Part shown: in pieces, positions 10,704-45,180 of the stretch
Position numbering within the stretch: position 1 is the first letter of the stretch
Layout of the letters: each line of letters opens with the position of its first letter
Source: Candidatus Multivorans sp.
Lineage (GTDB): Bacteria; Acidobacteriota; Thermoanaerobaculia; Multivoradales; Multivoraceae
Direction: 5' to 3'
NCBI GenBank assembly: GCA_965224025.1
Contig: OZ245033.1
Location: 128,001 to 192,000 of the forward strand
DNA length: 64,000 nucleotides
The notes under the pieces: model-generated
The model's input: the letters and a program-made list of their open reading frames with translations, nothing else
What the model was told of the DNA's origin: nothing
Databases searched by the model: none
Position numbers and translations under genes: made by a program

Positions 10704-10729
10704 CGTCTCTCCCGTCACTCCCGCCGTCA

Positions 10730-11124
10730 GTCTGTGGAACCGACCGGGCCTCCAAGCGTACATGGGGTCATGGGCCTGCTCGAGCGCCGGCTTCGCCATG
10801 CAGCAGCTCCTGCAGGTCTGGCTGCTGGCGGGCGTACTTCCAGCATCTTCAACGCCGGCGCCTTCCTGACCGTGTTCCCCTTCATCGTCCTTCGCGTCTA
10901 CGAGGGCGACGCGGAACTCCTGTCCTGGCTGATGATCGTCTTCTTCGCGGGCGCTGTCGTCTCCAATCTCCGGCCGCGTCATGTCCGTCTTCGGCCTCGG
11001 CCTGCTCGGCGGCTCGCTGATCGGCGCCCTCGCCGGCCTCGTCCCCGGCATGGCTGCCTCGGTGCTGCTGTTCGTGTACAGCATGGCGGCAACCGGGCTG
11101 TGGCGGTATCGGAGTTCACCGTAG
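10730..11124 (+). pseudogene. MFS transporter relic with large internal deletions
   Basis: Three fused pieces in different frames: LWNRPGLQAYMGSWACSSAGFAMQQLLQVWLL; SIFNAGAFLTVFPFIVLRVYEGDAELLSWLMIVFFAGAVVSNL; GRVMSVFGLGLLGGSLIGALAG...LWRYRSSP*. Confidence 0.65.
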
Positions 11125-12077: not shown

Positions 12078-13046
12078 TCACTCGCTGCCGATCAACGGCG
12101 GAAAACGCACTTCCCCCACCCGGGTCCGCTCCACAGAACCGTCGGCCCGCTTCTCCAGTACCTGGAGTACCTGCATTCCGTTCTCAGGACCCACCGGCGC
12201 CACGAGCTTCCCGCCCACTGCAAGCTGATCGATCAACGTCCGCGGCACGGACTCCACCGGCGCCTTGATGACGATCGAGTCGAACGGCGCGAGCTCTGGC
12301 CACCCCTGGTTGCCGTCGTCGATCCGGATCGTCACGTTGCCGTAGCCAAGGTCGCCCAGAGTGGCGGCCGCCCGTACGGCCAGGGGCTCAACGGGCTCGA
12401 TCGTGTAGACGTGGCCGGCCATCTCGGACAGCACGGCGGCCGAGTAGCCGGAGCCGGTACCGACCTCCAGCACCTTGCGGTCGGGAACAGGCACCGTGAA
12501 TGCGGTGAACACGGAGGCCTCTTTGCCGGCGCCGATCTCCACTTCGCGGGTGAGGACGGGCACTGCAAGTTCGGCCATCAGCAGAACGGTGTATGCATCT
12601 GGAATCGTCCGCCCCCAGCCGATCGGCAGCGCAGTGGGTCGATAGGCCCTGTCTTGCTGGGTCTCCGACACGAAGCGGTGCCGGGGCACCCGCATGATGA
12701 CGTTCAGAGCGCGGTCGACGCTGATGTCGGTCGGAGGTCCCGACCGGCCAAACAGGAACTCCATCCGCTCACGCTCTTCAAGCCGCTCGTAGCGGGCGAG
12801 GCCGGCCACGCTGCTGGCCACCTGGACTGCGAAGTACGATACCGCGAAGAGCGTGAACACGCCGGCCGCCCACACGACGACAGGACCGAACGCAAGCGGG
12901 CGAGCGGCCGAACGATCCGCCAGTCGCCCCTTCAGCACAGCCGCGAGAGGACGGTCAAGCCGAATCCCCTGACGGCCGAACAGCCCATGCCCCCGCGCCT
13001 GGTCGCCGATTCGCGGCTGGAAAGCCAAGGGTCGCCAGATCTTCAC
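12078..13046 (-). CDS. Second, divergent L-isoaspartate O-methyltransferase paralog with N-terminal TM helix
   Basis: VPRHRFV, VLEVGTGSGYSAA, APFDSIVIKA, VRFPPL; TM segment PVVVWAAGVFTLFAVSYFAV. Start uncertain. Confidence 0.8.
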   Translation of the reverse strand: MKIWRPLAFQPRIGDQARGHGLFGRQGIRLDRPLAAVLKGRLADRSAARPLAFGPVVVWAAGVFTLFAVSYFAVQVASSVAGLARYERLEERERMEFLFGRSGPPTDISVDRALNVIMRVPRHRFVSETQQDRAYRPTALPIGWGRTIPDAYTVLLMAELAVPVLTREVEIGAGKEASVFTAFTVPVPDRKVLEVGTGSGYSAAVLSEMAGHVYTIEPVEPLAVRAAATLGDLGYGNVTIRIDDGNQGWPELAPFDSIVIKAPVESVPRTLIDQLAVGGKLVAPVGPENGMQVLQVLEKRADGSVERTRVGEVRFPPLIGSE

Positions 13047-18137: not shown

Positions 18138-19276
18138 CACTCTTCCTCGTCCTCGCCGAGCTCCTCGGGCACGAGCGCCCGGCAGTCCAGGGCCGCCCAG
18201 CCGACTGTCACCGTGTCGCCCGGCAGCACGGCGCCGTGGCCCACGATGTTCGGGATCTTGGCGATGAAGCCGGAGCAGCCGCCAACCGTCATGCGAACCC
18301 GCAGGTGGTCGCCGAGGAAGATCATGTCGTCGATCCGCGTCTCGACCTCGTTCCGATAGCGGCCAGGGCGCGCCGAAACCGCTACCCGCTCCGGCCGGAT
18401 GACCACGGTCGCCCGCGCGCCCGGCGGACACAGGCCGAGGCTCATCGCCCTGACTTGGAACCCTCCGACATCGACTTCGCAGACGCCGTCGCCCTCGCTC
18501 ACGACGACGCCGTCCAGGCGGTTGTTCTCGCCGATGAACCGGGCGACGAAGGCCCGCTCGGGTTCCTCGTAGAGAACCTCAGGCGCCGCCGCCTGCTCGA
18601 TCATGCCGTTGTGGAACACCGCCACCCGATCGGACAGCGTCATCGCCTCCTGCTGGTCGTGGGTCACGTAGACGACGGTCACGCCCAGGGCCGAGTGGAT
18701 GCGCCGGATCTCGTACTGCATCTCTTCGCGCAGGCGCCGGTCGAGGGCGCCCAGGGGTTCGTCCATCAGTACGAGTTCCGGCTCGAAGACCAGGGCACGG
18801 GCGATCGCCACGCGCTGCTGCTGGCCGCCCGAGAGTTGCGACGGCTTCCGGTCCTCCAGCCCCTCGAGCTGCACCAGGCTCAGCGCCCGCGCGACCCGCT
18901 CCCTGCGCAGCGCCGGCTCGACCCCGCGGACCTCGAGCGGGAAGGCCAGGTTGCCGCCCACCGTCATGTGCGGAAACAGCGCGTAGTTCTGGAACACCAT
19001 GCCGATGCCGCGCTTGTGCGGCGGCTGATCCTGAATTGGCTGGCCGCCGATCAGGATCGTTCCGGCGGTCGTCGCCTCGAATCCGGCGAGCATCATCAGG
19101 CAGGTCGTCTTGCCGGAGCCGGAAGGCCCGAGCAGGGTCAGGAACTCGCCCCTCTCGACCGCAAGGTCCAGGCCCAGCACGACCAGGTTGCGGCCATCGT
19201 AGCTCTTGTCTACGCCCACGAACTCGACGTGGGGAACGGCGCTCTCGGCGCGCTCGTCAGAGGGCGGGACGTCCAC
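18134..19276 (-). CDS. ABC transporter ATP-binding protein (PotA-like)
   Basis: GPSGSGKTT, LSGGQQQRVA, LMDEPLGALD, VTHDQQEA; TOBE-like C-terminus. Confidence 0.95.
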   Translation of the reverse strand: MDVPPSDERAESAVPHVEFVGVDKSYDGRNLVVLGLDLAVERGEFLTLLGPSGSGKTTCLMMLAGFEATTAGTILIGGQPIQDQPPHKRGIGMVFQNYALFPHMTVGGNLAFPLEVRGVEPALRRERVARALSLVQLEGLEDRKPSQLSGGQQQRVAIARALVFEPELVLMDEPLGALDRRLREEMQYEIRRIHSALGVTVVYVTHDQQEAMTLSDRVAVFHNGMIEQAAAPEVLYEEPERAFVARFIGENNRLDGVVVSEGDGVCEVDVGGFQVRAMSLGLCPPGARATVVIRPERVAVSARPGRYRNEVETRIDDMIFLGDHLRVRMTVGGCSGFIAKIPNIVGHGAVLPGDTVTVGWAALDCRALVPEELGEDEEEW

Positions 19277-19285
19277 GAGGCCGCG

Positions 19286-19293
19286 ACTATACT
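19286..19293. promoter_or_regulatory. Overlapping divergent -10 hexamers
   Basis: actatact reads TATAGT on the - strand (19291-19286, 9 nt before the ABC ATPase GTG) and TATACT on the + strand (19288-19293, upstream of boxC). Confidence 0.5.
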
Positions 19294-19328
19294 TGCCACT
19301 TGCCGTTTCCGGTCCGTCAGATCAGCAG

Positions 19329-21044
19329 ATGACCACCCAAGCCGCCGCGGACGACCCCTCGTCCGGCAGCACTGGAACCGGGACACCCGCGGATGAACTC
19401 ATCGATTTCCGCACGGCCCCGGACCGTTACCGGCACTGGCGACTCGATATCGCACCGCCGCTCGCCTTCCTGACTCTCGAAGTCGACGAGCAGGCGGGGC
19501 TCAGGCCCGGCTACCAGCTCAAGCAGAACTCCTACGACCTCGGCGTCGACTTCGAGCTCTACGACGCGACCCAGCGGCTGCGCTTCGAGCACCCGGAGGT
19601 CCACGCCGTGGTGCTCCGCTCCGGCCGGGAGCGAATCTTCTGCGCCGGCGCGAACATCGGCATGCTCGGCGGCTCTTCCCACCAGTTGAAGGTCAACTTC
19701 TGCAAGTTCACGAACGAGACTCGGCTGGGGATCGAGGACGCCAGCCGGTACTCGGGCCAGCGCTACCTGTGCGCCGTCAAGGGCACGGCGGCCGGCGGCG
19801 GCTACGAACTGGCACTCGCCTGCGACCGCATCCTGCTCGCCGACGACGGCAGTTCCGCGGTCTCCCTGCCGGAGGTGCCTCTGTTGGGCGTCCTGCCCGG
19901 CACCGGCGGACTGACTCGCCTGCTCGACAAGCGCCGGGTGCGCCGCGACCTGGCCGACCTCTTCTGCACGCTCGAAGAAGGCGTGAAGGGCCGGCGGGCG
20001 GTGGACTGGAACCTGGTCGACGAGTTGCTTCCGCGGTCTTCCTTCGACGACGACGCCGCGGCCCGCGCGCAGCAGTTGGCCGCACAGAGCGACCGCCCCA
20101 CGGAGGCCGGCGGGACGGCCTGGCCCGCGATCGAACCGGCGTTGGGAACCGACACGCTCACCTACTCCACGCTGAGGATCGAGTTCGACCGCGCCCTCGG
20201 CGTGGCCCACCTGACCGTCCTCGGGCCGACCGAACCGCCGCCCACGGCCGGCGCCGCGGCACTCGCCGAGGGCGCCGGCTTCTGGCCCCTCACCCTGGCG
20301 CGCGAACTCGACGACGCCCTGCTCCACCTGCGGCTCAACGAGACCCGGCTCGGTCAACTCGTGATCCACTCCCGCGGCGAACTGGAAGCGGTCGCCGCGT
20401 TCGACGAACTCCTGCACCGGGACCGCGGCGACTGGTTCCTGCGCGAAGTCCTGCTGTACTGGAAGCGGGTGCTCAAGCGGATCGATCTCACCGCCCGCAG
20501 CGTCTTCACCCTGATCGAGCCCGGAAGCTGCTTCGCCGGCTTCCTGCTGGAGCTGGCGCTGGCCGCGGACCGCTCATACATGTTCGAGGGCGAGGCCGAG
20601 GACGGCGCCCCCGCGCCACACGTCCAACTCGGCGAGTTGAGCTTCGCCGCGCTCCCGATGCCGAACGGCCTGAGCCGGCTCGAGACCCGGTTTCTGGGCC
20701 AGCCGGAAGCCGCGGACCGGCTGCGCGAGCTGATCGGGAAGCCACTGGACGCCGAGGTCGCCGAACGGGCCGGCCTGGTCACCGAAGTGCTCGACGATCT
20801 GGACTGGGACGACGAGGTCCGCATCGCTCTCGAGGAGCGGGCCAGCTTCTCACCCGACGCGCTGACCGCGATGGAAGCCAACCTCCGCTTCCCCGGCCCA
20901 GAGACCCTCGAGAGCAAGATCTTCGGCCGCTTGAGCGCGTGGCAGAACTGGATCTTCCAGCGTCCGAACGCGGTCGGCGATCAGGGAGCGCTCCGCCTCT
21001 ACGGCACCGGCCGCCGGCCCCGCTTCGACCGCGAGCGCGTCTGA
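19329..21044 (+). CDS. boxC: 2,3-epoxybenzoyl-CoA dihydrolase / benzoyl-CoA-dihydrodiol lyase
   Basis: YQLKQNSYDLGVDFELYDA, KVNFCKFTNETR, LPEVPLLGVLPGTGG, FGRLSAWQNWIFQRPNAVG. Confidence 0.95.
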   Translation: MTTQAAADDPSSGSTGTGTPADELIDFRTAPDRYRHWRLDIAPPLAFLTLEVDEQAGLRPGYQLKQNSYDLGVDFELYDATQRLRFEHPEVHAVVLRSGRERIFCAGANIGMLGGSSHQLKVNFCKFTNETRLGIEDASRYSGQRYLCAVKGTAAGGGYELALACDRILLADDGSSAVSLPEVPLLGVLPGTGGLTRLLDKRRVRRDLADLFCTLEEGVKGRRAVDWNLVDELLPRSSFDDDAAARAQQLAAQSDRPTEAGGTAWPAIEPALGTDTLTYSTLRIEFDRALGVAHLTVLGPTEPPPTAGAAALAEGAGFWPLTLARELDDALLHLRLNETRLGQLVIHSRGELEAVAAFDELLHRDRGDWFLREVLLYWKRVLKRIDLTARSVFTLIEPGSCFAGFLLELALAADRSYMFEGEAEDGAPAPHVQLGELSFAALPMPNGLSRLETRFLGQPEAADRLRELIGKPLDAEVAERAGLVTEVLDDLDWDDEVRIALEERASFSPDALTAMEANLRFPGPETLESKIFGRLSAWQNWIFQRPNAVGDQGALRLYGTGRRPRFDRERV

Positions 21045-21081: not shown

Positions 21082-22545
21082 ATGACGATTACAGGCAGCA
21101 CCGTCGACTACGATTTCCTGATTCCGAACAACGTCGCCCTCGCGTCGGACGCCCGCGTCCGTCGCGGCCTCGAGCGCTGGCATCCAGGCTACATCGACTG
21201 GTGGATGGACATGGGGCCCGACGGCTTCCAGACATCGGACGTCTACCTGCGCACCGCGGTGCGGGTCGAGTCCAAAGGCCGGGAGAAGTGGGCCGTGTTC
21301 GACTACGTGAAGATGCCCGACTACCGCTGGGGCATCCTGCTGGCGCCCCAGGCCCCGGACCGAAAGATCCCCTTCGGCCGGCACTGCGGCGAGCCGGCCT
21401 GGCAGGAGATCCCGGGCGAGTACCGGGCCATGCTGCGACGCCTGATCGTGATTCAGGGCGACACCGAGCCGGCGTCCGTCGAGCAGCAGCGCTTCCTGGG
21501 CAAGACGGCCCCCTCGCTCTACGACATGCGCAACCTGTTCCAGGTCAACGTCGAAGAGGGCCGCCACCTGTGGGCGATGGTCTACCTGCTGCAGAAGTAC
21601 TTCGGCCGCGACGGCCGCGAGGAGGCTGGCGAACTGCTTCGGCGGCGCTCCGGCTCGGACGACGCGCCGCGCATGCTCGGCGCCTTCAACGAGGAGACGC
21701 CGGACTGGCTCTCCTTCTTCCTGTTCACCTTCTTCACCGACCGCGACGGCAGGATGCAGCTTGAGTCGCTCGCCCAGTCCGGCTTCGACCCGCTGTCGCG
21801 GACCTGCCGTTTCATGCTCACCGAGGAGGCGTTCCACATGTTCGTCGGCGAGACCGGCGTCACCCGGATCGTGCAGTGCACCTGCGAGGCGATGCAAGCG
21901 GCCGGCATCGACGATCCGGCCGACATCGAGGCGGTGCGGGCCCTGGGCGTGATCGACCTGCCGACGATCCAGAAGAAGGTGAACCTGCACTACTCGCTGA
22001 CCCTCGACCTGTTCGGCTCCGAGCTGTCCACGAACTCGGCGAACTTCTTCAACGCCGGCCTCAAGGGCCGTTTCCGCGAGCACCGGCTGGAGGACGACCA
22101 CCGGCTGCACGAGGCCACGTACGGCATCCCCGAACCGGCCAACGGCGGCTGGACCGTCGTCCAGCATCCGGCCTTGAACGCGCTGAACGCGCGGCTGCGC
22201 GACGACTTCACGGAGGACTGCAACCTCGGCGTCGGCCGATGGAACAAGGCGATCAGCCAGTCCGGCGTCGACTTCGAGCTCAAGCTTCCCCACGTCGCCT
22301 TCCACCGGCAGATCGGCGTCTACCGCGACCTGCACGCGACGCCCGCGGGCGAACTGATCACCGAGGACGACTGGCAGGGTCAACGAGGCGACTGGCTGCC
22401 CGACGACAGCGACCGCGCCTTCATCGAGTCGTTGATGAAGGCGGAGTTCCGGCCCGGCCGCTACGCCTCCTGGATCGCGGAACCCAGGATCCGGATCAAC
22501 CACAAGCCCGGCGACTTCGAGTGGGTCAAACTGGCTGAGGCATAG
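21082..22545 (+). CDS. boxB: Benzoyl-CoA 2,3-epoxidase subunit B (di-iron)
   Basis: IPNNV, WWMDMGPDGFQ, QGDTEPASVEQQ, VNVEEGRHLWAM, FMLTEEAFHMFVG. Confidence 0.96.
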   Translation: MTITGSTVDYDFLIPNNVALASDARVRRGLERWHPGYIDWWMDMGPDGFQTSDVYLRTAVRVESKGREKWAVFDYVKMPDYRWGILLAPQAPDRKIPFGRHCGEPAWQEIPGEYRAMLRRLIVIQGDTEPASVEQQRFLGKTAPSLYDMRNLFQVNVEEGRHLWAMVYLLQKYFGRDGREEAGELLRRRSGSDDAPRMLGAFNEETPDWLSFFLFTFFTDRDGRMQLESLAQSGFDPLSRTCRFMLTEEAFHMFVGETGVTRIVQCTCEAMQAAGIDDPADIEAVRALGVIDLPTIQKKVNLHYSLTLDLFGSELSTNSANFFNAGLKGRFREHRLEDDHRLHEATYGIPEPANGGWTVVQHPALNALNARLRDDFTEDCNLGVGRWNKAISQSGVDFELKLPHVAFHRQIGVYRDLHATPAGELITEDDWQGQRGDWLPDDSDRAFIESLMKAEFRPGRYASWIAEPRIRINHKPGDFEWVKLAEA

Positions 22546-22567: not shown

Positions 22568-22858
22568 ATGAGCAGCCCAAGCGATGGCACCGACCTGGTG
22601 CGCGAGGCGGAGCAGGAACTCGAGCGGCTGATCGCATCCTCGGCGGCCGACACCGCAGCACGAGCCTGCGACACCGCTGCACGAACCTGGCAGGCGGCCG
22701 CCGTGGCCATTCGCCATGCTCGAAGATGGTCGCGTCGCTTCGGGGATGACGACGATTGGGAGGCCCTTGCCGACGTACGTCTCGATTGGCCGGATGTCCT
22801 CGAGGAACGGCACGGGAGCAGCCAATGGCACTGCCTCAGAACCAAACTGAGACACTAA
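22568..22858 (+). CDS. Small hypothetical protein (possibly a gene fragment)
   Basis: 96-aa ORF with plausible protein composition; imperfect 21-bp tandem repeat at 22649-22690 (DTAARAC/DTAARTW). Confidence 0.5.
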   Translation: MSSPSDGTDLVREAEQELERLIASSAADTAARACDTAARTWQAAAVAIRHARRWSRRFGDDDDWEALADVRLDWPDVLEERHGSSQWHCLRTKLRH

Positions 22859-22971
22859 CGGTGCGGCCAGCAGCTTGACCGACGATGAGCCGTGCTGCAG
22901 ACTAAGAGGCTTGCTGCTCGCCGACGGCCCTCCAACTGCTAGGCCGCAGCCGCTTCGCCCCAGGAGATGAC

Positions 22972-23451
22972 ATGACCGAGTACGCACTGTTCTTCGAGAG
23001 TGGCGGTCCCGTCCTCGGCGAGGGCTACATCGTCTCGGTTCGCGTGCGCGGCCGGGCCTTGGCGATCCGCGATGACGAAGACGGCGAGTTCCAGCTCAGC
23101 GGAGTGAATCCGGGTAGCCTCCTAGGGTTCGGGCGAACGCTGAACGAGGCTTACCAGGAGTTCGTCGAGTCGCTACGATGCGTACTCATCGACATCGCGT
23201 CAGATGCGCCGAGCTTCGAGGACTTTCGTCGGGAAGCCCAGGACTTCTTCCATACGGAGGATCCTCGATCCGAGACAAGGTGGGATGCAGCGCGGGAGCG
23301 GGTTCGGAGAGGAGAAACGCCGAACGAGCTGAATCTCAGGCTGGAGAGTTCGACGCCTGATCTTGGCATCGACGTTCAGCACGTAGAGGTGCCATCGCTT
23401 TCCGCCAACGCTCCCGCGCAGCAACTGTCGCCAAGCGCGGTCGCCGCCTGA
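22972..23451 (+). CDS. HicB-like antitoxin candidate
   Basis: AGGAG RBS; GFGRTLNEAYQEFVESL resembles the HicB G-x-T-x-x-EA motif; acidic; possible promoter TTGACC-17-CAGACT at 22875-22903. Confidence 0.55.
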   Translation: MTEYALFFESGGPVLGEGYIVSVRVRGRALAIRDDEDGEFQLSGVNPGSLLGFGRTLNEAYQEFVESLRCVLIDIASDAPSFEDFRREAQDFFHTEDPRSETRWDAARERVRRGETPNELNLRLESSTPDLGIDVQHVEVPSLSANAPAQQLSPSAVAA

Positions 23452-23469
23452 AGCGACCCAGCGGGTTCG

Positions 23470-23721
23470 ATGGCTACCAGGGGATTCGTACGCCTGAGCG
23501 CGATCTGGCGCATGCTCGACCTGTGTGCTCCTGGTCACGAACGGGTTCTGAAGACCCACCGATGGTGGGTCACATGGCACGGACGGACCTTCCGGGGCCT
23601 CCCCAAGGGACCCGGGCGCAACCAGAACGCTGAGGTTCGCTTTCAGTACGTCCAGAAACTGGTCGCCGTCCTCGAGATCGACCCCGATTGCGCGGCCGGG
23701 TCCTTCCGTCAGACGCTCTGA
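23470..23721 (+). CDS. HicA-like toxin candidate
   Basis: 83 aa, basic, alpha-beta-beta-beta-alpha pattern, His in LKTHRWW, C-terminal helix EVRFQYVQKLVAVLEI. Confidence 0.5.
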   Translation: MATRGFVRLSAIWRMLDLCAPGHERVLKTHRWWVTWHGRTFRGLPKGPGRNQNAEVRFQYVQKLVAVLEIDPDCAAGSFRQTL

Positions 23722-23731
23722 ACTCGACGCG

Positions 23732-24313
23732 CTACGGGTACAGCAGGCCCATCCGCCACGAGTCACCCTCCCGCTCGTAGTAAGTCCGGTCGTGGAGCCG
23801 GTGCTCCCGGGCGACCCAGAACTCAAAGCGCCGGGGCACGACTCTGAGCCCCGTCCAGTGCAGCGGACGGGGCACCTCGAGGCCGGAAAAGCGCTCGCTC
23901 ACGCGCTCGAAATCAGCGAGAAGCTGTTCCCGGCTCGCCAGGGGCCGGCTCTGCCGGGATGCCCACGCGCCGACCTGGCTGTTCCGGCTGCGAGTCGCGA
24001 AGTAGGCGTCGGCCTCGGCGTCGCCGACCCGCTCGGCGCGGCCGAAGATCGACACCTGTTCCTTCGGCTCACGCCAGAAGAAGTTCAGGCTCACGTCCGG
24101 CCGCGCGAGAATCTCCCGGCCCTTGCGGCTCTCCAGGTTCGTGTAGAAGACGAAGCCCTCGCGGTCGAAGTGCTTGAGCAGCACGACCCGTGACGACGGG
24201 CGGCCCTGCTCGTCGGCACTTGATACGACCATCGCGTTCGGCTCGGCGAGGCCGGTGGCCGAGGCGCGCTCGAAGAGGCCGCGGAAGCGGTCGAAGGGGT
24301 CGCTCACAGTCAC
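23732..24313 (-). CDS. pdxH: Pyridoxine/pyridoxamine 5'-phosphate oxidase
   Basis: EPNAM, PSSRVVLLK, FYTNLESRKG, GAWASRQS, EFW...RLHDR. Confidence 0.95.
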   Translation of the reverse strand: MTVSDPFDRFRGLFERASATGLAEPNAMVVSSADEQGRPSSRVVLLKHFDREGFVFYTNLESRKGREILARPDVSLNFFWREPKEQVSIFGRAERVGDAEADAYFATRSRNSQVGAWASRQSRPLASREQLLADFERVSERFSGLEVPRPLHWTGLRVVPRRFEFWVAREHRLHDRTYYEREGDSWRMGLLYP

Positions 24314-24371: not shown

Positions 24372-25406
24372 TCAGATGCGCGGCAGGACCTCGTCCGTAA
24401 AGAGAACGAACGAGCCGTGACTGAGCGGGGCGCAAAGGAGATAGTCGAGGAACATCTCTTCCTTCAGCCGGGCGATCTCGTCCACCAGTTCGTTCGGCGT
24501 GCCGTAGAGGATGACGCCGTTCAGATACCGGTCGACCGCGGACTGTTCCTCGGCGCTCTGACTGAAGGCAGGGGCCGCCAGTTCCGGCCGCTCGAGGTTT
24601 CGCCTCGTATCGGTCGCAACCGGCCGGGTCCCCTTCTGCTTGTGTGACCTGATGGTCCACAAGGCGCCGGCGCGAGCGATCTCCTCCGCTTCGGCCCGGG
24701 TACGTGCACAGGCGATCAGACGCGCCATCGGGATCTCCCGGCCCTCGATCGCGTGGCCGTGCGACTCGAGGATCTCCCGGTACAGCTCTCGCTTCTCGGC
24801 GATCCGGTCGTGCGCCGAGTGCGGGTCGAGCATGATCGAGAAGCCGTTCTCGGCAGCCCAGGTCATCGACTCCGGCGACGACGATGCAAGCCACACCGGA
24901 GGGTGCGGCTTCTGCGCCGGCTTCGGCAGCACCTCGACATCGCGGCACTGGAAGTGCTCGCCCTCGAAGGTGAGGCTCTCATTCGTCCAGGCGCCGACCA
25001 CCGCCTGCACGTGTTCCCGGAACACCGGATAGCTGTGCCGCGGGTCAACGCCGAACGCCCTGAACTCGCCCTCCGCGTATCCACGGCCGACGCCCCAGTT
25101 GACCCGACCGCCGGAGAGCACGTCGAGCAGCGCCACCTCCTCCGCCAAGCGCAGCGGGTTGTAGAACGGCGCCAGGGAGACGCCGGTGCCGATCCGCAGG
25201 TTCTTCGTCCTCGCCGCCACCTCGATACCCATCATGTGGATCGAGGGACAGATGCTGAACGAGCTGAAGTGATGCTCGGCCAACCACACCGCGTCGTAGC
25301 CGTTCCGGTCCATGATGTCGATGCGCTGGAACGCTCGGCGGTAGACCTCTTCCAGCGGAATCCGCCGGTCGGGCCAGGAGAAGAACTGGAGGACTGCGGC
25401 CTTCAT
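24372..25406 (-). CDS. Luciferase-like (LLM class) flavin-dependent oxidoreductase
   Basis: VWLAEHHFS, PLRLAEEVALLDVLSGGRVNWGVGRG, PKPAQKPHPPVW. Confidence 0.92.
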   Translation of the reverse strand: MKAAVLQFFSWPDRRIPLEEVYRRAFQRIDIMDRNGYDAVWLAEHHFSSFSICPSIHMMGIEVAARTKNLRIGTGVSLAPFYNPLRLAEEVALLDVLSGGRVNWGVGRGYAEGEFRAFGVDPRHSYPVFREHVQAVVGAWTNESLTFEGEHFQCRDVEVLPKPAQKPHPPVWLASSSPESMTWAAENGFSIMLDPHSAHDRIAEKRELYREILESHGHAIEGREIPMARLIACARTRAEAEEIARAGALWTIRSHKQKGTRPVATDTRRNLERPELAAPAFSQSAEEQSAVDRYLNGVILYGTPNELVDEIARLKEEMFLDYLLCAPLSHGSFVLFTDEVLPRI

Positions 25407-25438
25407 CGGCCGGCAATCGTCTCACAGTTGCCGAACGA

Positions 25439-25750
25439 CTATTGGCGGCGGCGCTTGTAGACGTAGGACAGGCCCTCCTCGGCGAAGGCGCGGCAGGCCT
25501 TGTCCTTGAACTCAACCGCCTTGTCCCACTCCTCGATGTCGTAGTAGTCGCGCTCGGCGACGACGCGGATCTCGCGTACCGTCCGCTCGTCGAGGTCGAG
25601 ACGCTCGGCGATCTCGCGGTCGGAGAGACCCCGGCGCCGCTTCTCTCCCGGCAGGTGCTCGTGGATGTCGACCTGGATCGAGTTCGAGAGTTCCAGGATC
25701 TCGTCGCGGTGACGGCGGTAGGTCTCCGGATCGATGAAGAAGAAAGCCAT
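25439..25750 (-). CDS. Small hypothetical protein with HTH-like segment
   Basis: ATG 25750, MAFFFIDPETY...; GLSDREIAERLDLDERTVREIR resembles a helix-turn-helix; 103 aa. Confidence 0.75.
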   Translation of the reverse strand: MAFFFIDPETYRRHRDEILELSNSIQVDIHEHLPGEKRRRGLSDREIAERLDLDERTVREIRVVAERDYYDIEEWDKAVEFKDKACRAFAEEGLSYVYKRRRQ

Positions 25751-25766
25751 GTTCCGCCCTCGCCTT

Positions 25767-26654
25767 CTACGCCTTCTCCCGATACCCGGCGCCGACCGGG
25801 CAGACACGCATGCACTCCCAGCACTGGCCCTGACTCTGGGCGGCATAGGTCATCGACCAGAGAGTCTTCGTGAAGTGGCTTGAGTAGAGCACCATCTTGC
25901 GGGCCTCCGGATCCTCCTGGTCGAGGGCCAGTTCGAGCCCTTTCTGAAAGCCCGGAATCCAGTGCGTGTAGACCCGGGACGTGCAGCGCGCTGCGTCGTA
26001 CCGGCGTTCGACGAGCCGGCCGTTCTCGATCCGCCCGTCCAGGCAACCGCCGTCACCCAGGGGACACACGCGGGTGCACGGCGTCGCGCCTTCAGCCTCC
26101 CACATCTCGACGCAGGCCGGCGCCGGGCAGGCCGGTTCGGCCGGTTGCTCTGTGACCGGAAAGGGATACGTAGTGATGATCGCCGAGTAGAAGAGCAGGC
26201 CGTACTCGGGATGCAGCACGGGCCCGGCCAGACTGCGGGAGCCGCAACCGGCGAGTTCCGCCGCCAGCGCCACGCTCAAGAAAGGCTGGTTGCCGCGACG
26301 CACGCCCGGCGGCACGAACAGCGCGTAGTAGCCGAATTCGGCCTCGATGAACTTCGCCGTCTTGAGTCCGAGCGAGTTGATCCGGTCGCTGGTGCCCATC
26401 GTCTCCAGGTGCTCGTGAACCGGACTCGCCCAGTCGGCGGCCCGCGGCGGACTGCCGCCGACCACCACGACGCGGCGGGCCGAGGGCAAGAGGTCGCCGG
26501 GTCGGAAGCCCTCCGGCGCGTCCTCGAAGGCGTCGGCGTCGGCGTCGGCGACGCCCCAGGCAAGCGCGCCGCCGCGCTCGACCATCGCGGCCAGACGTCC
26601 GCGGGCAGCCGAGGTCTCCGACGCGGTCGGCGCCGCCGGCACGGCCTCGGTCAC
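25767..26654 (-). CDS. QueG/reductive-dehalogenase-like Fe-S protein, paralog 2
   Basis: GTG 26654 (GTGA overlap). GVADA..F..APEGFRPGDLLPSARRVVV, AAELAGCG, LHPEYGLLFY, C-x4-C-x11-C-x3-CP, YDAARC, CWECMRVCP. Confidence 0.75.
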   Translation of the reverse strand: MTEAVPAAPTASETSAARGRLAAMVERGGALAWGVADADADAFEDAPEGFRPGDLLPSARRVVVVGGSPPRAADWASPVHEHLETMGTSDRINSLGLKTAKFIEAEFGYYALFVPPGVRRGNQPFLSVALAAELAGCGSRSLAGPVLHPEYGLLFYSAIITTYPFPVTEQPAEPACPAPACVEMWEAEGATPCTRVCPLGDGGCLDGRIENGRLVERRYDAARCTSRVYTHWIPGFQKGLELALDQEDPEARKMVLYSSHFTKTLWSMTYAAQSQGQCWECMRVCPVGAGYREKA

Positions 26655-27514
26655 TGGAGCCGCCTCTCGTGCATGCCGACCGGGCACACCCGCATGCACT
26701 CGAAGCACTGCGCCACGCTCTCCTTGTAGTGGCTGAGCGACGAAAGCGACTGGGTGAAGAAGTCCGAATAGACCATCGACCGGCGCCGCTCCCGGTCCTC
26801 CTCCGTAGTGATCTGCACCAGCGACTTCTGAATCGAACCGATGCCGAAGTTCATCGCCCGCGAGGTGCAGCGTTCGCGGTCGTAGTACGAATAGCTGATA
26901 CGGCCATCCTCGTCGATGGCGCCGTCCAGGCAACCGCCCTCGTCCTTCGGACACGACGCGAGGCACGGCGTGGTGCCCAGCTTCTCGTACATCTGGATGC
27001 AGGGCTTCGACGGGCAGACATCCTCCTCAAGCGGATGGTCCGGCTCAAGATCGAGGGTCGTGACCAGGGCGGCGTAGTACAGCAGGCCGTACTTCGGATG
27101 CAGGATGATGTTCGCGGCCAGCGAGCGTGTGCCGAGCCCCGCGAGCACCGCCGCCAGCATCATGCTCATCGGCGGGTTGTGGCCCGCGGTGGGCAGCGAC
27201 GGCGCCTGGAGCGCGCGGTGGCCGTGCTCACGCTCGATGTAGTCGCACATCACGTGGATCGCCACGTTCTCCCGGAAGTCGTAGCCTGTGATCTCCATCA
27301 CCCGGTGATCGGGACTTCGCCAGGCGCCAGCCGTCGGTCCCTGGTTGCCGGCGACGACGACGCTCCGGGCGCCGGGCAAGACGTCTTCCGGCCGATGTCC
27401 CTCCGGCACGAAATCGTTGAAGGCGTTCGCCGCCGCAACGCCGACCACGAGGGCCCCGGCGCCGGCGCCCACATCGCGCACAGCCGCCGTTCTCTGCTGT
27501 CGGGCGTCCGCCAT
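26651..27514 (-). CDS. QueG/reductive-dehalogenase-like Fe-S protein, paralog 1
   Basis: VGVAAA..F...PEGHRPEDVLPGARSVVV, AAVLAGLG, LHPKYGLLYY, same Cys pattern, CFECMRVCP. Confidence 0.75.
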   Translation of the reverse strand: MADARQQRTAAVRDVGAGAGALVVGVAAANAFNDFVPEGHRPEDVLPGARSVVVAGNQGPTAGAWRSPDHRVMEITGYDFRENVAIHVMCDYIEREHGHRALQAPSLPTAGHNPPMSMMLAAVLAGLGTRSLAANIILHPKYGLLYYAALVTTLDLEPDHPLEEDVCPSKPCIQMYEKLGTTPCLASCPKDEGGCLDGAIDEDGRISYSYYDRERCTSRAMNFGIGSIQKSLVQITTEEDRERRRSMVYSDFFTQSLSSLSHYKESVAQCFECMRVCPVGMHERRLQ

Positions 27515-39548: not shown

Positions 39549-42500
39549 ATGTTGACTCCCACGAACGGAGCCGTAGCACCAACCGCCGAAGGCCCGCGAG
39601 GCCATTCGCCGGAAAGACGGGAGGGGGATCGACTCGTCGAGGCACAAGCGAGGCGGCAAGTGCAGACGTTCTTCGACGAACTGAAGAACGGGACCCGGAA
39701 CTACCGGACAGTCGCCAGCCTGAGCGGCCAGATCACGCAGGAGTATCGAGGCCGCTGCGTCCTGGAACTCCTGCAGAACGCCCACGACGCGCTCGCCGGC
39801 GCCCGGCCGGACGACCCACGCAGGATCTCCTTCGTGCTCGCTACCGAGCCCGAACCGGTGCTCCTGATCGCCAACAGCGGCCGCCCGTTCCGCCATGAGG
39901 ATTTTGAGGGAATCTGCCAACTCGGCCAAAGCCCCAAGGATCCCAACGAGAGCGTCGGCAACAAGGGCCTCGGCTTCCAGAGCGTGCTCGAAGTCTCGAC
40001 GCGGCCCCAGATCTGGTCCATGACGGCCGAAGCGGGCGACCCGGAGTTCGTCTTCGGTTTCGACCCCGCCGGGACGGAGCGCCTCGTAGAGCAGGCTCTC
40101 GCCGAGATCGAGAGTGGTCTCTCGCCTCCACATGCCGCTACCGGTCGACGAATCATCAACTGGTCGGAAGAACAAGTGCACGACTACCAGAACGGCGATG
40201 GGTCCGGCGGAGCGGTCGACGCCGCTCGCGAAGCCCGGAAGTACGTGTCGCCATACTCGATCCCACTGCCGATCGAAGAAACGCCCCCGGAGGTAGCCGA
40301 GCTTCTCGATGCGGGTCACGCAACGGTCATCCGGCTGCGGCTCGACGGTGGCAGAACCGGCGCATTGGACAAGGCTGTCGAGTCCATCGGGGACTCTGAT
40401 CGGGCTGCAGGTGCTTCTGCCGACCGGCGGCGCGCAGTGGACGAGGCGGTCGAGTCGATTAGGGACCAACTCAACCGACTGGACGCCCGCTCGGCTGTCT
40501 TCCTGCCGGACCTCGAGAGACTGACCATAGACGTGGACGGAGAGAGCCGCATCCTCGAGCGCATCGTCGACTCCAGCGCTGACCTGCCGGGATCGCGACC
40601 TGCACGCGAGCAAGTGCTGCTGGTCGGTCGTTCAGCCGGAAGCGCCCTCGACGAAACGACGCGGGAGTTCCGCGTATGGTCGCGCGGCCTGGGAGGCGAC
40701 CGCGATCCCGCGGAAGCGCGACGAATCCGGGACGCCGTCAAACACCTGCCGAACCGTTGGCCCGAGGTTCGACAAGTCAAGGTCGGTGTAGCGGTCGAGG
40801 ACAGCAGTACCCCAGAACCCGGCGCGTTCGTCATCTTTCTGCCCACTGAAGTCGGCACCGGCACCGGAGCGCACATCAACGCCCCGTTCTACGGCTCGCT
40901 CGACCGCCGCCAGATCAACTTCAACGACGAATACAACGCGCTGCTCATCGAGTACGTGAAGGATCTGGCGCTCGACGTGGCCACCGAACTCGCGGCGGGA
41001 CCGACCGAAGGCTGGCGCGCGCGAGCGGTCATCGACTTGCTGGCCTCCGCCGGCCCGAGACCCGCAGACGGGCGACCGCCCCTCATGGACCAGATGCGCC
41101 AGCGGGCGGAGGACACGCAACGGGATCTCGACAAGGCCGCCCTGCTTCTTTGCGACGACGGTTGGCGGAGGGCCGAAAGCGCGAGGACCATGCCCGACGT
41201 TCCCGGCGACGGCGCGCTGGGCGCGGCCCGATGGCGCGAGAGCGCGGCGTTCGATGTCGTCTCTTCCGAGCTCGACGGCCGCCGCAAGAAGGTCGAAGCG
41301 CTTCTTGACTGTCTCGGCGGATCGTCTGCACCGACGCCGGCCGAGTGGGCGCATACGGTCGAGCGGCTCGCGGATCGCATTCACCGCGGCGAGATAGACG
41401 CCTCCTGGGACGCGTTTCTGAGGAGTCTGCAAACCGTCCTGCCCCGGGAGGTCCGATCCGAACCCAAGGCCGGGGCGGCCGACCCGCTCGCAACCGCGAA
41501 GTTCCTTCCCACCCGTGACAGCCGCGTCCTCTCCGCCTCCGGCGACCTCCAGATCTTCTTCCGGCCGCGTAGGGGATTCGACGACGCGACGGAGTTCGCC
41601 GCCCTGGTTCCCGAGTCGCTCGCGGACCGCATCGCGTTCCTTCACGACGGCGTGAGGACCCATGAGGGTCCGCAGCGGCGGACCGAAGTCCAGGCCTTCC
41701 TCAGCGGACGGAACGGACGCTTTGTCCAGAGCTTCCGACGAGAAGACCTTCTCCGGGATGTGGTCCTTCCGGCACTCCCCGAGTTGCCCGTGGAACACGG
41801 TACACCAGAGGCCGGGCGCTGCTCCGAGATCCTGGGATGGACCCTCTTGCTGCTTGGCGGTGAAGAGCTGGAAGCGGTCGAGGACCTACTGAGACGTCTG
41901 CCCGTAGCCTGCTACGGCGGTTGGTTGGCGGCCGGCAGAGCCGTCTTCGGCCGGGGGTGGCAAGGTCAGCATGGCGAGTGCCTCCAGACTCTGGTCGACG
42001 GTCTGCCCGACGGTAGGCGCCGTCTACTCGACCAAGCACTCCTGCCGCCACAGGACCGGCGGTGGGGCCTCTCCGCCGCAGCTCCGAACGGACTGCTCGA
42101 AAGAGCCGGGGTCGTCGACGGACTCCCGATGGAAACCGCGGAACCAGTTCTCTTCGCGATGTCCGCGAAGTATCGGGAGTTGCCGCGGAACGCGCCCCAA
42201 GGCATTCCCCAAGACGCATGGGACGACTGGCTCGACGCCGTGGAGACGGAGTTGAAGCCAGAGATCAAGAGTCGGACCGCCTACCGGCTCGACAACGTCC
42301 ACGTGACGTCCGAGATCCACTACCTGCACGATCTCCAGGACCGAGCGCGAGAAGCTCTCTCCGACCTGATCCTCTCTTCTCTCGACAAGTGGGACGATGA
42401 CTGGGAGTCCGCGAGGTTCCTGAGACCGCGCTATCCGGCCGCCGCGAAGCGCGTCGCTTCTCCCCTGCGCCACTGGCTAACGACCCTCCCGTGGCTCCAC

Positions 42501-45180
42501 GACAACCAGGTCGAGCCGCGACCTCTGTGCCAACGGTGGTTCGTGCCGGAGTCTCTCCTCCGAGGTCAAGGCGGCCGGTTCGCCCATCTGGCGCCCTTGT
42601 CGCTGAAGCTGGCCCGCCGCCTGGGCGAGAGCCCCGATCTGCTCGCGACGCTCACCCGGCTCGGCCTGAACGTCTATCCGACGGAGGGCGACCGGACGGG
42701 GCCCGAGTTGCTCGAAGCGCTGGCGGACGCGCATGAGAAGAACGAGATGCCCGCCGGCGGATTCGACGTCTTTCTGGGTCAGGTGCGTCACGCCTGGAGC
42801 CACCTCGACCCTGACGACGAACTGCCGAAACGTTTCCTCGTCCGGACAGCGGCGCGCAGGTTCGAGATCAGGAGCGCAAGCCAACTGGCCGACGTGTACC
42901 TGCCCGATCACAACCTCCGCAGCCGCTCCCTCAAGAGCCACCGGAAGCCGCTCCTCGAAATGCTCCTCAAGGAGGCGCGTGGCCCGGCCGGCGATCGTCT
43001 CGACGCGCTCGACTTGAGACGCGCGTCGAATCTGCGCGAACGCTGCCTCGTCGACGGCCAGCCCCTCCTTGACGACGCGACCGCCGGGGCAGCGCCGATT
43101 GAAGACACGGAACTGAGCTGGCTGCCCCTCGTGCTGCTCACTCTCGCCGCACATGGAGGCGGCGATCCCAGGGGCCCGGCTACCGCCCCCTGGCGGAACG
43201 CCATGGGGCGGCTCCGCGGCGCCCTCGTGCGCCGCTGCGGCTCGCTCGCGGTGGAACTGATGGACGCCGACCAGGTCGTTGACTACAGCGAGCCCCGCGT
43301 CCACTGGCTCCCGAACGAACGAGTGCTTCTGCTCTGCCACGGCGCGAGATACGACGACCTGGCATCCGCTAGCCAGGCGCTGCTCGAACGTCAGGATCTT
43401 CTGAAGGACCTCCGCCTCGTCCTGGGAACCCTGACAGGCGCGGCGCCGGAACCGACCCGCCAACAGATCGAGTCCGCGCTCGACCGAGCCGAAATCGATG
43501 GCGAAGCGGTGGCCGACATACGCCATCGGTGGTTCGGCGCCACCGCGCTCCTCGTCGACCGCATTCGGCCCGTGCTGAAGCTGCTCGGGCTGCCTGACGC
43601 GGGGCTCGAGGCGGCGGTGAGCGATACCAAGGCCCTGGAGGCATGGCTGGCGTCGCACCTGCCGGAAGGCACGACCGACTGCTGGTCGCCAGAAGAAACT
43701 CGTCTCGGCCGCCAGAAGAAGTCGCGACGACATCGAGATGGGACGAGCTGCCTTCAGGCACCTCGGCGAGAAAGCTCAACTTCCAGGCTGGAACAACGCC
43801 TTGGCCCAGCTTGGCGACCGCTGCGCGCCAGTGGCGAACGTCGACGCAGCCGAGCAGACGAAGCGGCACGTCAAGGAAGCCGCGCCGTGTCTGCGGGCGC
43901 TGGCTCGGCACCTCGCCATCGAGAAAGACAGGCCAGAACTGTTCCGAAAGCTCGAACAGGTAGCCGAGAACTTCGAAGCTCCAGACGACTGGTCAGCCAA
44001 GTGGTGGGAAGTGCCCTTCCGCGCCGTGACCGCGAAACTACGCACCGGCTACGCGGGCGTAGTTGGCACAGACTCAGGCTTGGTGGAGGCCCTTGAAGAC
44101 GCTGGTTCGCCCAAAGACCTTCGCGCGGCACTCGAACAGCGAGGCGTGGTCCTTGACTGCGACCCGTACGAGACCTTCCGGCGGAACGAGAACCGGCTCG
44201 AAAAGGAGATCGGCCAAGTGAGCGATCTCCACCGAGCATGGCTGGAGGTTTCGGAAGCAGGACCGGCCCCTCCCCGGCACGAGGCGTCCGGGTCGCCCCG
44301 AATGGACTCCTCGGAATACCTTCGGAACTGGTCTGACGCGGAGGTCTTCGAGCAAGCGCTTGAGGCGTTGGACGATGCGGAGTTCAGCAGACGATGCGAC
44401 GGGTGCCGAGCCGTCGACGAGGCGCGGGCGAAGCTCGGAGTCACTTCACAAGTCGTCGAACAAGTACGGCGGAAGCGTCTTGAGCGGCAGCGGGAAGAGG
44501 AGCGGGCGAAGAGGACCTTCACGATCGCCGGCAGGCCGTTCGAGGTGGGCGGCCGCGAGAGCTACGGCGATCTCCTGGCTCGTCTCGGCACCCTGCCCGA
44601 ACCGAAGGGGCCCAGCGTCAAGGGCGACGAGTCGACGCGGCTGGTCCCACCGGGCCGCGGTCCAGCCCCAAGGCATCGTCCCGCCCCAGCCTCACCCGGC
44701 AGAACCTCCCACCTGTACTCGCGGCCCCACCTTCCCGGCCTGGTCGGAATCGTCGGCGAGATGCACGCCTACCGCTACCTTCGGTCTGAATTCGGCAGCG
44801 ACATCGTCACGGCTGCCGCCTGGGTGTCCGAGAACGGCCTCGAGGTCCTGCCGCTGGCAGGAGGCGAGAAGCGTGACGCACGCGACAACCACGGCTTCGA
44901 CTTCCGGTTCGCCAGCGACGGCATCACGTGGCGCTTCGAGGTCAAGGCGACCACGGAGGACGACACGAGCTTCTCGCTCCCGCCGAGCGAAATTCGCGCG
45001 GCCACGAGCCTCGCGAACAGGCGTCGCGACCGCTGGCGCATCCTGCGCATCAGGCATGCGCTCTCCGACACACCGGAGATCGACTTGCTTCCCAATCCCT
45101 TCGAGACCGGCTTCTCGGACCTCTTCCGGCTCAGCAGCGGCGGGCTGAACGTCCGCTACGCACTGGACGCCGCTACGTAG
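39549..45180 (+). pseudogene. Giant sacsin-like GHKL ATPase with C-terminal DUF3883-like nuclease, ~1876 aa if a 1-nt frameshift at ~43696-43698 is repaired
   Basis: ELLQNAHDA, IANSGRPF, SVGNKGLGFQSV, HINAPFY in ORF 39549..44096; GEMHAY...HGFDFRF...FEVKAT...SEI in ORF 43738..45180. Removing one A from GAAGAAACTC gives WSPEE-LVSAARRSRDDIEMG. Confidence 0.75.

Follow-up and report, generated by a model that had tools for sequence, protein, structure and literature searches.

We propose that three adjacent genes in a 64,000-nucleotide stretch of the genome of Candidatus Multivorans sp. (contig OZ245033.1, positions 128,001 to 192,000; "the window" means this whole stretch) encode the subunits of one reductase. 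Two of the genes, which we call A and B, are paralogs and belong to the superfamily of epoxyqueuosine reductase (QueG) and the reductive dehalogenases (RdhA), which is characterized by class III cobalamin and two [4Fe-4S] clusters; we consider this assignment secure. The third encodes a small helical protein of 103 amino acids, and the three genes form one conserved cassette of 2.1 kb. Our best explanation is that the products assemble into a cytoplasmic heteromeric enzyme that would carry out a reductive elimination on an aromatic acyl-coenzyme A (acyl-CoA). We give this statement, taken as a whole, a probability of about 0.45, which is a little short of even odds. The genes, and the parts of A that matter most for the argument, are as follows:

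26651-27514, minus strand: gene A (287 amino acids; P0001), a QueG/RdhA-like core followed by a ferredoxin-like domain, with eight predicted cluster cysteines
25767-26654, minus strand: gene B (295 amino acids; P0002), a paralog of A that keeps all eight cluster cysteines
25439-25750, minus strand: small gene (103 amino acids), which starts 16 nucleotides (nt) after the stop of B; proposed third subunit
26930..27016, minus strand: first cysteine block of A, C167-x4-C172-x11-C184-x3-C188-P-x5-C195
26681..26707, minus strand: last cysteine motif of A, C270-x2-C273-x3-C277-P278
27275..27286, minus strand: codons of G77-Y78-D79-F80 of A, in the loop before a long helix, where B has T-S-D

A and B had originally been described, from the sequence alone, as two paralogs of about 290 amino acids that are coupled by GTGA, and that description is accurate. 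The overlap joins the GTG start of B to the TGA stop of A. (The longest reading frame of B is longer, and we took the GTG at 26654 as its start, which gives 295 amino acids.) The two proteins are 44% identical across 283 residues (E = 8e-66), and residual identity is visible in the DNA as well, as had been noted: 57.6% across the 284 codons that align, where the longest stretch without a mismatch is 17 nt. The paralogy is confirmed and lies far beyond chance. The GC content of the window is high (about 68%).

Nine cysteines are common to A and B, with exactly the spacing that was claimed for both (C-x4-C-x11-C-x3-C-x6-C ... RC ... C-x2-C-x3-CP). They are at positions 167, 172, 184, 188, 195, 216, 270, 273, and 277 of A and at 176, 181, 193, 197, 204, 224, 278, 281, and 285 of B, and each protein has one further cysteine that is not shared. 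Across the 100 members of our family alignment (A1, which includes A, B, and more distant relatives), C167, C184, C216, C270, C273, and C277 are invariant, and C172 and C188 are conserved in at least 90% of sequences; conservation of the ninth shared cysteine, C195 of A, is limited to A and B. The eight conserved cysteines would be enough for two predicted [4Fe-4S] clusters in each large subunit. The second cysteine motif holds a helical insertion of about 55 residues ahead of the last C-x2-C-x3-CP. In the predicted structure of A, the region between Cys216 and Cys270 forms four helices (213-220, 225-237, 241-248, and 251-261), which agrees with the long helical insert that had been proposed.

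The relationship to QueG and RdhA is clear with a family profile, while tools that work from a single sequence are nearly blind to it. A Pfam scan of A, B, and the small protein found nothing above cut-offs, and a single-sequence phmmer search of PDB sequences had QueG as its sole match (E = 0.029). With the profile of A1, the same sequences yielded QueG (5d08, E = 1.3e-16), PceA (4uqu, 6.5e-15), 8q4h (8.9e-14), and NpRdhA (4ras, 8.5e-10). Alignment of profiles by hhalign, against 19 QueG sequences from Acidobacteriota (alignment A4, with the unpublished G024 left out), gave a probability of 98.1 for the orthologs of A (E = 1.1e-13) and 96.0 for the orthologs of B (E = 4e-9). The best-conserved parts of the profile alignments are P..D.LP.A.SV and S...AA..AG.G...P.YG, which are common to QueG and RdhA. 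ESM Atlas was less informative: its matches to A were unnamed or "iron-sulfur" clusters only.

Structural comparison points the same way. The AlphaFold2 model of A has a predicted local distance difference test score (pLDDT) of 88.9 and a predicted template modelling score (pTM) of 0.84, and its best PDB matches by Foldseek are QueG (E = 3e-10), PceA, NpRdhA, and MMACHC. When we compared the model to 48,161 chains with VIA-align, the Z scores were 17.1 for QueG, 15.2 and 15.1 for PceA-type enzymes, and 14.8 for NpRdhA, so all four solved family types match at 14.8-17.1 over 207-213 residues. Lower down were MMACHC/CblC (9.2 to 7.8) and nitroreductases that bind flavin mononucleotide (FMN), at 6.9 or less. 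These matches, together with the profile matches, imply that A has the fold of the class III cobalamin/[4Fe-4S] reductases, and that it is nearer to the B12-binding than to the flavin-binding members of the nitroreductase-like group. The layout of that superfamily, a nitroreductase-like cofactor core and then a ferredoxin-like domain, is present in A. The B12-processing protein MMACHC/CblC has the same corrinoid-binding core fold as A (Z of 9.2 and 8.9); unlike A and B, it lacks the ferredoxin domain and the clusters. So the homology of both proteins to QueG and RdhA, which was part of the original prediction, has been borne out, and so has a fold of the B12 type.

A and B are not, however, QueG or RdhA proper, and we reject membership in either. 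Against the NCBIfam equivalog for QueG (TIGR00276, cut-off 200 bits), A scores 17.9 and B scores 14.5 bits, and against the RdhA model (TIGR02486, cut-off 160.35) they score 28.5 and 23.2 bits. A canonical queG is elsewhere in the genome (G000:C1:3249195-3250196; 321.5 bits), and each of the five other cassette-bearing genomes that we tested has one too, so the expectation that the pair is not the cell's QueG was right. No RdhA is above the cut-off in the genome (best score 39.6 bits).

The solved examples of class III enzymes that matched A (QueG, PceA-type enzymes, and NpRdhA) give a sense of what is shared and what is not. The best structural match is QueG (5d08 and 5t8y from B. subtilis, 5d6s from S. 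thermophilus), with Z of 17.1 and a root-mean-square deviation of 3.2 Å over 207 residues. Like A and B, QueG is cytoplasmic and has a nitroreductase-like core followed by an eight-cysteine domain for two [4Fe-4S] clusters. But its first motif is C-x2-C-x2-C-x3-CP, as compared to C-x4-C-x11-C-x3-CP in A and B, and it has neither their helical insertion nor a second, paralogous subunit with a small partner; conversely, A and B do not keep its Asp134 and Arg141. QueG also carries a C-terminal helical-repeat domain that binds tRNA (described in PMC4646009). Since A ends 10 residues past the last cysteine motif, and the hhalign match stops at position 245 of the 333 positions of the QueG profile, this domain is absent from A.

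The reductive dehalogenases PceA (4uqu, 8q4h) and NpRdhA (4ras, 6zxu) have the same fold as A (Z of 15.2, 15.1, and 14.8). The second Fe-S motif of A and B is truncated, with a distant first cysteine, and this is a common arrangement in RdhAs. There is also a precedent for the A/B pair in their dimeric or pseudo-dimeric organisation: PceA is a homodimer, and NpRdhA is of the long type with a vestigial second core. Such a vestigial core is described for long cytosolic RdhA-like proteins in PMC12219181. The cassette differs from RdhAs in lacking a twin-arginine (Tat) signal, RdhB, and an NAD(P)H-reductase module. Specifically, neither N-terminus has an RR within its first 45 residues, and no gene for an rdhB-like membrane anchor is in the operon; the genes nearby encode the small soluble protein, a luciferase-like oxidoreductase, and PdxH. 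In RdhAs the active-site tyrosine has an Arg or Lys as its partner, and where PceA has Arg305 we read Tyr146 for A and Phe155 for B from the profile alignment. In our literature searches we found no described counterpart of a heteromeric class III member with a small third subunit, and a search of open PMC and bioRxiv found no publication on the A/B pair or the cassette. The original prediction was of a cytoplasmic alpha/beta cobalamin-dependent reductase. The superfamily, the pairing, and the absence of a Tat signal and of rdhB all stand; the use of cobalamin is still a prediction.

The genome has a second array of QueG-like genes, with three tandem paralogs on the minus strand (G000:C1:768654-771500; L085 8654-11500). 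Its first motif is more canonical (C-x4/5-C-x2-C-x3-CP), it shares with A and B the long insertion ahead of the last C-x2-C-x3-CP, and we saw no gene for a small subunit. An open reading frame (ORF) about 7 kb away has an N-terminus that resembles, by eye, the beta subunit of 2-oxoacid:ferredoxin oxidoreductase.

The two large subunits appear to have distinct roles. A and B have separate sets of subunit-specific invariant residues, which implies that each is under its own constraint. We confirmed the middle segments that had been flagged as different, MEITGYDFRE in A and LETMGTSDRI in B, and in the model of A the segment is in the loop that precedes a long helix (residues 81-97), the region in which QueG and PceA have their active-site tyrosine. 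Among the orthologs of A, G77, D79, and F80 never vary, and at least 90% have Y78. From this pattern of conservation we infer that A is likely the catalytic subunit.

The cassette is conserved across a wide range of bacteria. We collected 80 related loci and assessed the presence of each gene by tblastn: A and B were in all 80, so these homologs are not solitary, and the small gene was in 78. In one of the two exceptions the contig ends inside B (L032), and in the other no small gene was found (L040). The median projected gap is 0 nt between A and B and 23 nt between B and the small gene. By their titles, 29 of the loci are from close relatives (Candidatus Multivorans, Acidobacteria, Thermoanaerobaculia, or Holophagales), and the other 51 are from Acidobacteriota, Myxococcota, Entotheonella/Tectomicrobia, Planctomycetes, Alpha- and Gammaproteobacteria, Burkholderiales, Anaerolineales, and Acidimicrobiales. 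Judging from the record titles, the cassette is in at least seven phylum-level groups, with 60-80% identity from one phylum to another. Relative to the window's proteins, identity is no lower than 60% for the orthologs of A and no lower than 51% for those of B, as compared to 39-49% between A and B, so the duplication that gave rise to A and B is older than the spread of the cassette.

Gene fusions also link the parts of the cassette. Our search of 1.84 billion representatives found 379 clusters that match at E ≤1e-3, of which 131 match at ≤1e-10. Two of these proteins have a QueG-like domain and a C-terminal domain that is homologous to the small protein (P0153, probability 98.0, E = 1.5e-13; P0146, probability 97.0, E = 8.7e-11), and two others have two QueG-like domains in a single chain (P0212 and P0218). 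The invariant gene order and coupling, the fusions, and the subunit-specific invariant residues thus give good, if indirect, support for a heteromer with a third subunit; contacts between the subunits are predicted on these grounds. We did not accept P0273 and P0124 as natural A-B fusions, as they look like frameshifted read-throughs from A into B with a garbled middle, nor P0274 as a longer natural form of A, as it looks like a miscalled start. More generally, the database entries P0124, P0273, P0274, and P0003 look like read-throughs or seem to have miscalled long N-termini, and they could be mistaken for natural fusions.

The small protein itself resembles little else. It is predicted to be all helical (pLDDT 79.2), and its Cys86 is invariant in the ortholog alignment. 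It has no Pfam family, its best match in a profile search of the PDB has E = 0.085, its best Foldseek match has E = 1.1 (the matches are helix-turn-helix folds like sigma region 4), and in ESM Atlas it matches only unnamed clusters. The helix-turn-helix-like stretch raises the idea of a DNA-binding regulator, which we ranked low given the fusions to an enzyme domain and the tight conservation of the three genes.

The cassette also seems to be lost as a unit. In two complete genomes from the same genus (G716 and G726), no match to A was found even though every first-look candidate was scored. By DNA comparison, both genomes retain boxC, boxB, pdxH, the luciferase-like gene (inverted), Yip1, pheS, and pheT, and both lack the part of the window from about 25427 to 27399, so that B and the small gene are gone. 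What remains in G716 corresponds to residues 1-42 of A and abuts the end of the luciferase-like gene (L140 1464-1616; the locus in G726 is L139). Because the entire stretch is missing from both, we conclude that the three genes were lost as one block. Two genes lie downstream on the same strand and provide context:

23732-24313, minus strand: pdxH, outside the cassette
24372-25406, minus strand: luciferase-like oxidoreductase, outside the cassette

We rejected these as cassette members because they adjoin it only in close relatives and are retained when it is lost. The luciferase-like gene occurs in two orientations among the close relatives, with identities of 77-82% where it is inverted and 90-95% where it is not.

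In background samples the cassette is rare. We detected it in none of 400 sampled Pseudomonadota and in one of 200 sampled Acidobacteriota, with 6 or 11 first-look candidates scored per genome. In the order of G051, where nearly all candidates were scored, it was in none of 100 genomes; with the cassette absent from all of these relatives, that order offers no contrast within a clade.

The genes beside the cassette suggest what its substrate might be. We examined 53 neighbourhoods (L028-L080, of which L035 and L039 are close relatives and L037 is from an unpublished genome), and 29 of them have an AMP-binding ligase (29 of 52 without L037). These ligases are of the FadD type at 21 loci and PaaK-like at 9, with both types at one locus. 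Among the 19 FadD-type ligases of full length there are at least four subgroups, with just 24-36% identity between them, which suggests that ligases were recruited independently. (In the window's genome, we could not assign an ortholog of a neighbouring ligase, as the best match is 41% identical and is one of 13 paralogs.) A Pfam scan of 145 of the 192 neighbour-cluster representatives identified other recurrent families: enoyl-CoA hydratase, short-chain dehydrogenase/reductase, P450, carboxyltransferase, nitroreductase, SRPBCC, MarR, TonB receptors, and ABC transport. Thioesterase and CoA-transferase recur too, and a Rieske oxygenase and a homolog of old yellow enzyme are present. At 3 of the 53 loci, all proteobacterial, a gene of the reductive-dehalogenase family heads the gene row:

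L071 3104-4363: reductive-dehalogenase-family gene, 178.9 bits against TIGR02486 (above the cut-off)
L047 1900-3489: reductive-dehalogenase-family gene, 97.9 bits (below)
L049 2548-3525: reductive-dehalogenase-family gene, 92.4 bits (below)

In L047 and L049 this gene is followed by an enoyl-CoA hydratase, a CoA ligase, A, B, and the small gene; the row in L071 is the same without the enoyl-CoA hydratase.

A second line of evidence links the cassette to the Box pathway, in which benzoyl-CoA is epoxidized. Two genes of the pathway are in the window, on the opposite strand and 3.2 kb from the cassette:

19206-21044, plus strand: boxC, 2,3-epoxybenzoyl-CoA dihydrolase, 850.3 bits (cut-off 712.3), outside the cassette
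21082-22545, plus strand: boxB, benzoyl-CoA 2,3-epoxidase, 828.7 bits (cut-off 499.1), outside the cassette

BoxB is above the cut-off in 23 of the 30 cassette genomes of our first set and in 12 of the 20 of our second set, or 35 of 50 combined. (The second set gives 13 of 21 if the unpublished G735 is included, and one more genome has a fragment at a contig end.) In the background, BoxB is in 38 of the 400 sampled Pseudomonadota and in 36 of the 200 sampled Acidobacteriota, where the unpublished G682 is counted among the 36 and the unpublished G024 among the negatives. PaaA, which we used as a control marker, is in 23 of the 50 cassette genomes and in 75 of the 400 sampled Pseudomonadota, and at least one of BoxB and PaaA is above its cut-off in 42 of the 50. 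The support for a link to aryl-CoA compounds and the Box pathway thus comes from statistics and from gene neighbourhood, not from mechanism. Taken with the CoA ligases, it makes an aryl-CoA a likelier substrate than the free halo-aromatics that had been suggested.

The Box pathway in these organisms usually lacks BoxA. The window's genome is 100% complete and its best match to BoxA (TIGR03224, cut-off 459.2) has just 33 bits; among the first 30 cassette genomes, BoxA is above the cut-off in only 2, and 21 of the 23 with BoxB are without it. Near boxB there are other possible sources of electrons. In 7 of 20 BoxA-less boxCB clusters (L119, L120, L123, L124, L125, L136, and L137), both subunits of a 2-oxoacid:acceptor oxidoreductase directly follow boxB (alpha, 578.6 bits with a cut-off of 482.75; beta, 262.7 bits with a cut-off of 261.9). 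The 20 boxB neighbourhoods also include flavodoxin (3), pyridine-nucleotide-disulphide oxidoreductase (4), the benzoate-CoA-ligase family (5), and a molybdenum enzyme like 4-hydroxybenzoyl-CoA reductase (5; 758.8 bits, below the equivalog cut-off of 994.55). The oxidoreductase and flavodoxin genes suggest a variant of the Box pathway that is fed by ferredoxin. The cassette would be an accessory, peripheral reductive step, found almost only in organisms with a BoxA-less and probably ferredoxin-fed Box pathway. There is a functional analogy in 4-hydroxybenzoyl-CoA reductase, a molybdenum enzyme that removes a ring substituent at the level of the CoA thioester in a ferredoxin-dependent reaction that yields benzoyl-CoA, but its fold and cofactors are unrelated to those of the cassette.

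We can now sketch how the enzyme might work. Each large subunit would have a nitroreductase-like core that binds the cofactor (about residues 1-160), followed by a ferredoxin-like domain with two [4Fe-4S] clusters. A would carry the active site, with the conserved G77-Y78-D79-F80, and B, as its diverged partner, would pass electrons on or complete the dimer. The small helical protein may cap or dock the complex, as the fused C-terminal domain may do in single-chain relatives. Electrons of low potential would pass from a ferredoxin or flavodoxin through the clusters to a base-off corrinoid, and the corrinoid would use two electrons to eliminate a halide, a hydroxyl, or an epoxide oxygen reductively from an aromatic acyl-CoA that a CoA ligase encoded nearby had made. 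Benzoyl-CoA or an analogue would result and would enter the epoxide pathway of BoxB and BoxC.

Several observations weigh against this proposal. Our genome counts do not come from phylogenetically independent samples, and many of the genomes are incomplete, metagenome-assembled ones. With 6 or 11 candidates scored per genome, false negatives are possible, so the rarity of the cassette in the background samples may be overstated. At 24 of the 53 loci no ligase is seen, and BoxB does not reach the cut-off in 15 of the 50 cassette genomes. Furthermore, A, B, and the small gene are in none of 20 boxB neighbourhoods (±8 kb) from other cassette genomes; outside of the window's lineage, the cassette and boxB are separated by 60 kb to 1.7 Mb where they share a contig. 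And because G716 and G726 keep boxCB without the cassette, it cannot be needed for the core Box pathway. The corrinoid raises difficulties of its own, as the 100%-complete genome has no cobS. MetH (1096.8 bits), acyl-CoA mutases (743.2 bits), and QueG are all present in it, so the cell uses cobalamin and probably imports it, and any corrinoid in the cassette's enzyme would have to be imported as well. PMC5175355 describes roles for the catalytic Asp134 of QueG (B. subtilis numbering) and for Arg141, which is below the corrin. These correspond to His112 and Met119 in A and to Asn122 and Ala129 in B, according to a hidden Markov model (HMM) alignment, and the correspondence depends on the alignment.

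The identity of the active-site tyrosine is another difficulty. According to PMC4646009, QueG (in D-Y-H), PceA (Tyr246), and NpRdhA have just one active-site residue in common, a tyrosine above the corrin, and our alignments disagree about its counterpart. HMM alignment places PceA Tyr246 on Asp79 of A, so that the conserved Tyr78 adjoins the aligned position; hhalign instead places the D-Y-H of QueG on P68-D69-H70. Going by location, directly ahead of the long helix, G77-Y78-D79-F80 would be the better counterpart of D-Y-H. Under either alignment, the region of the catalytic loop is where A and B differ.

Other explanations also deserve consideration. The first that we would turn to, although we think it doubtful, is that A and B have the fold and clusters of QueG and RdhA without any corrinoid, and that they are a flavin-dependent or cluster-only redox enzyme or an electron carrier. 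After all, the core has a nitroreductase-like fold and the structure search does pick up FMN nitroreductases (Z up to 6.9), the QueG and RdhA models of Pfam and NCBIfam score far below their cut-offs, the two QueG residues are not conserved, and cobS was not found. On the other hand, the Z scores to B12 enzymes (14.8-17.1, and 9.2 for MMACHC) are clearly above those of any flavin protein, the best-conserved segments are the ones that QueG and RdhA share, and the cell uses cobalamin in other enzymes. We are more skeptical that the cassette encodes another tRNA-modifying enzyme, namely a divergent pair of QueG paralogs that act on epoxyqueuosine or a related nucleoside. QueG is the top match by structure and by profile, and many orthologs have "epoxyqueuosine reductase QueG" as their automatic name at JGI. 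Still, the QueG equivalog scores (17.9 and 14.5 of the required 200 bits), the absence of the tRNA-binding domain from A, the canonical queG in the window's genome and in five of five others, and the rare and patchy distribution of the cassette (none of 100 genomes in one order, and lost within a genus) make this very improbable. A respiratory, membrane-associated reductive dehalogenase is an idea that we hardly credit at all: the homology to PceA and the dehalogenase-family gene in 3 of 53 gene rows speak for it, but there is no twin-arginine signal and no rdhB-like anchor, and the scores against TIGR02486 (28.5 and 23.2 bits) are nowhere near 160.35.

Two other explanations start from the Box pathway. 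The enzyme could be the counterpart of QueG for small molecules, an epoxide reductase that depends on cobalamin and deoxygenates the reactive ring epoxides of aerobic, CoA-dependent pathways to give back the aromatic thioesters; candidate substrates would be 2,3-epoxybenzoyl-CoA (from BoxB) and perhaps 1,2-epoxyphenylacetyl-CoA (from PaaA). This is compatible with QueG being the closest solved relative, with the presence of BoxB or PaaA in 42 of 50 genomes, and with the dispensability of the cassette, and if true, the enzyme would be a dedicated safety valve or redox bypass where the Box system is without BoxA. We nevertheless see it as unlikely. A somewhat longer shot is that the cassette is the missing electron donor of BoxB and replaces BoxA, an NADPH-dependent FAD/[4Fe-4S] reductase. 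BoxA is likewise an iron-sulfur protein linked to BoxB, the window's genome has boxB and boxC and no boxA, and A and B together have four predicted [4Fe-4S] clusters. Also, BoxA is missing from 21 of 23 BoxB-positive cassette genomes and is present in 25 of the 38 BoxB-positive Pseudomonadota from the background, usually right beside boxB. But BoxA is missing with or without the cassette: none of the five BoxB-positive Acidobacteriota that we tested has BoxA, and only G720 has the cassette (G716, G726, G015, and G040 do not), and no cassette was detected in the 13 of 38 background Pseudomonadota that have BoxB without BoxA. Genomes from the same genus have lost the cassette and kept boxCB, and the cassette was never within 8 kb of boxB in 20 loci. 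There is another route for electrons in the 2-oxoacid:acceptor oxidoreductase beside boxB (7 of 20), the flavodoxin (3), and the pyridine-nucleotide-disulphide oxidoreductase (4). Finally, BoxA combines an FNR-like FAD/NADPH module with an N-terminal domain for two [4Fe-4S] clusters and has no sequence or domain similarity to the cassette. We detected no NAD(P)H- or FAD-binding domain in A, B, or the small protein, and a search of the whole genome for BoxA misses the cassette.

If we are correct that the cassette encodes a conserved heteromeric reductase with a third subunit, then it would point to a third branch of class III chemistry, in aerobic or microaerobic heterotrophs, that is tied to the catabolism of aromatic compounds as CoA thioesters. 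To our knowledge, the established activities of class III cobalamin enzymes are limited to the reduction of epoxyqueuosine in tRNA and reductive dehalogenation. The cassette would also bear on which redox partners serve class III enzymes, and on how electrons and substrates are supplied to the Box pathway in the many genomes without BoxA. Because it is compact, heterologous expression and direct assays should be practical.

The window contains other genes that we mention briefly. Between boxB and pdxH (22568-23721, plus strand) are ORFs of 96, 159, and 83 amino acids with no Pfam family, and conservation of the 159- and 83-residue ORFs is limited to a few close relatives. Two genes on the minus strand (9903-11084 and 12081-13046) are like protein-L-isoaspartate O-methyltransferase and have N-terminal extensions of about 190-200 residues, with an unassigned ORF of 270 amino acids between them. 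At 5805-6836 (plus strand) is an actin-like protein of the MamK family (360.3 bits, below the cut-off of 400), which adjoins a gene like N-acetylmuramoyl-L-alanine amidase. And there are two very long ORFs, of 1515 amino acids at 39549-44096 (plus strand) and of 1565 amino acids at 58760-63457 (minus strand).

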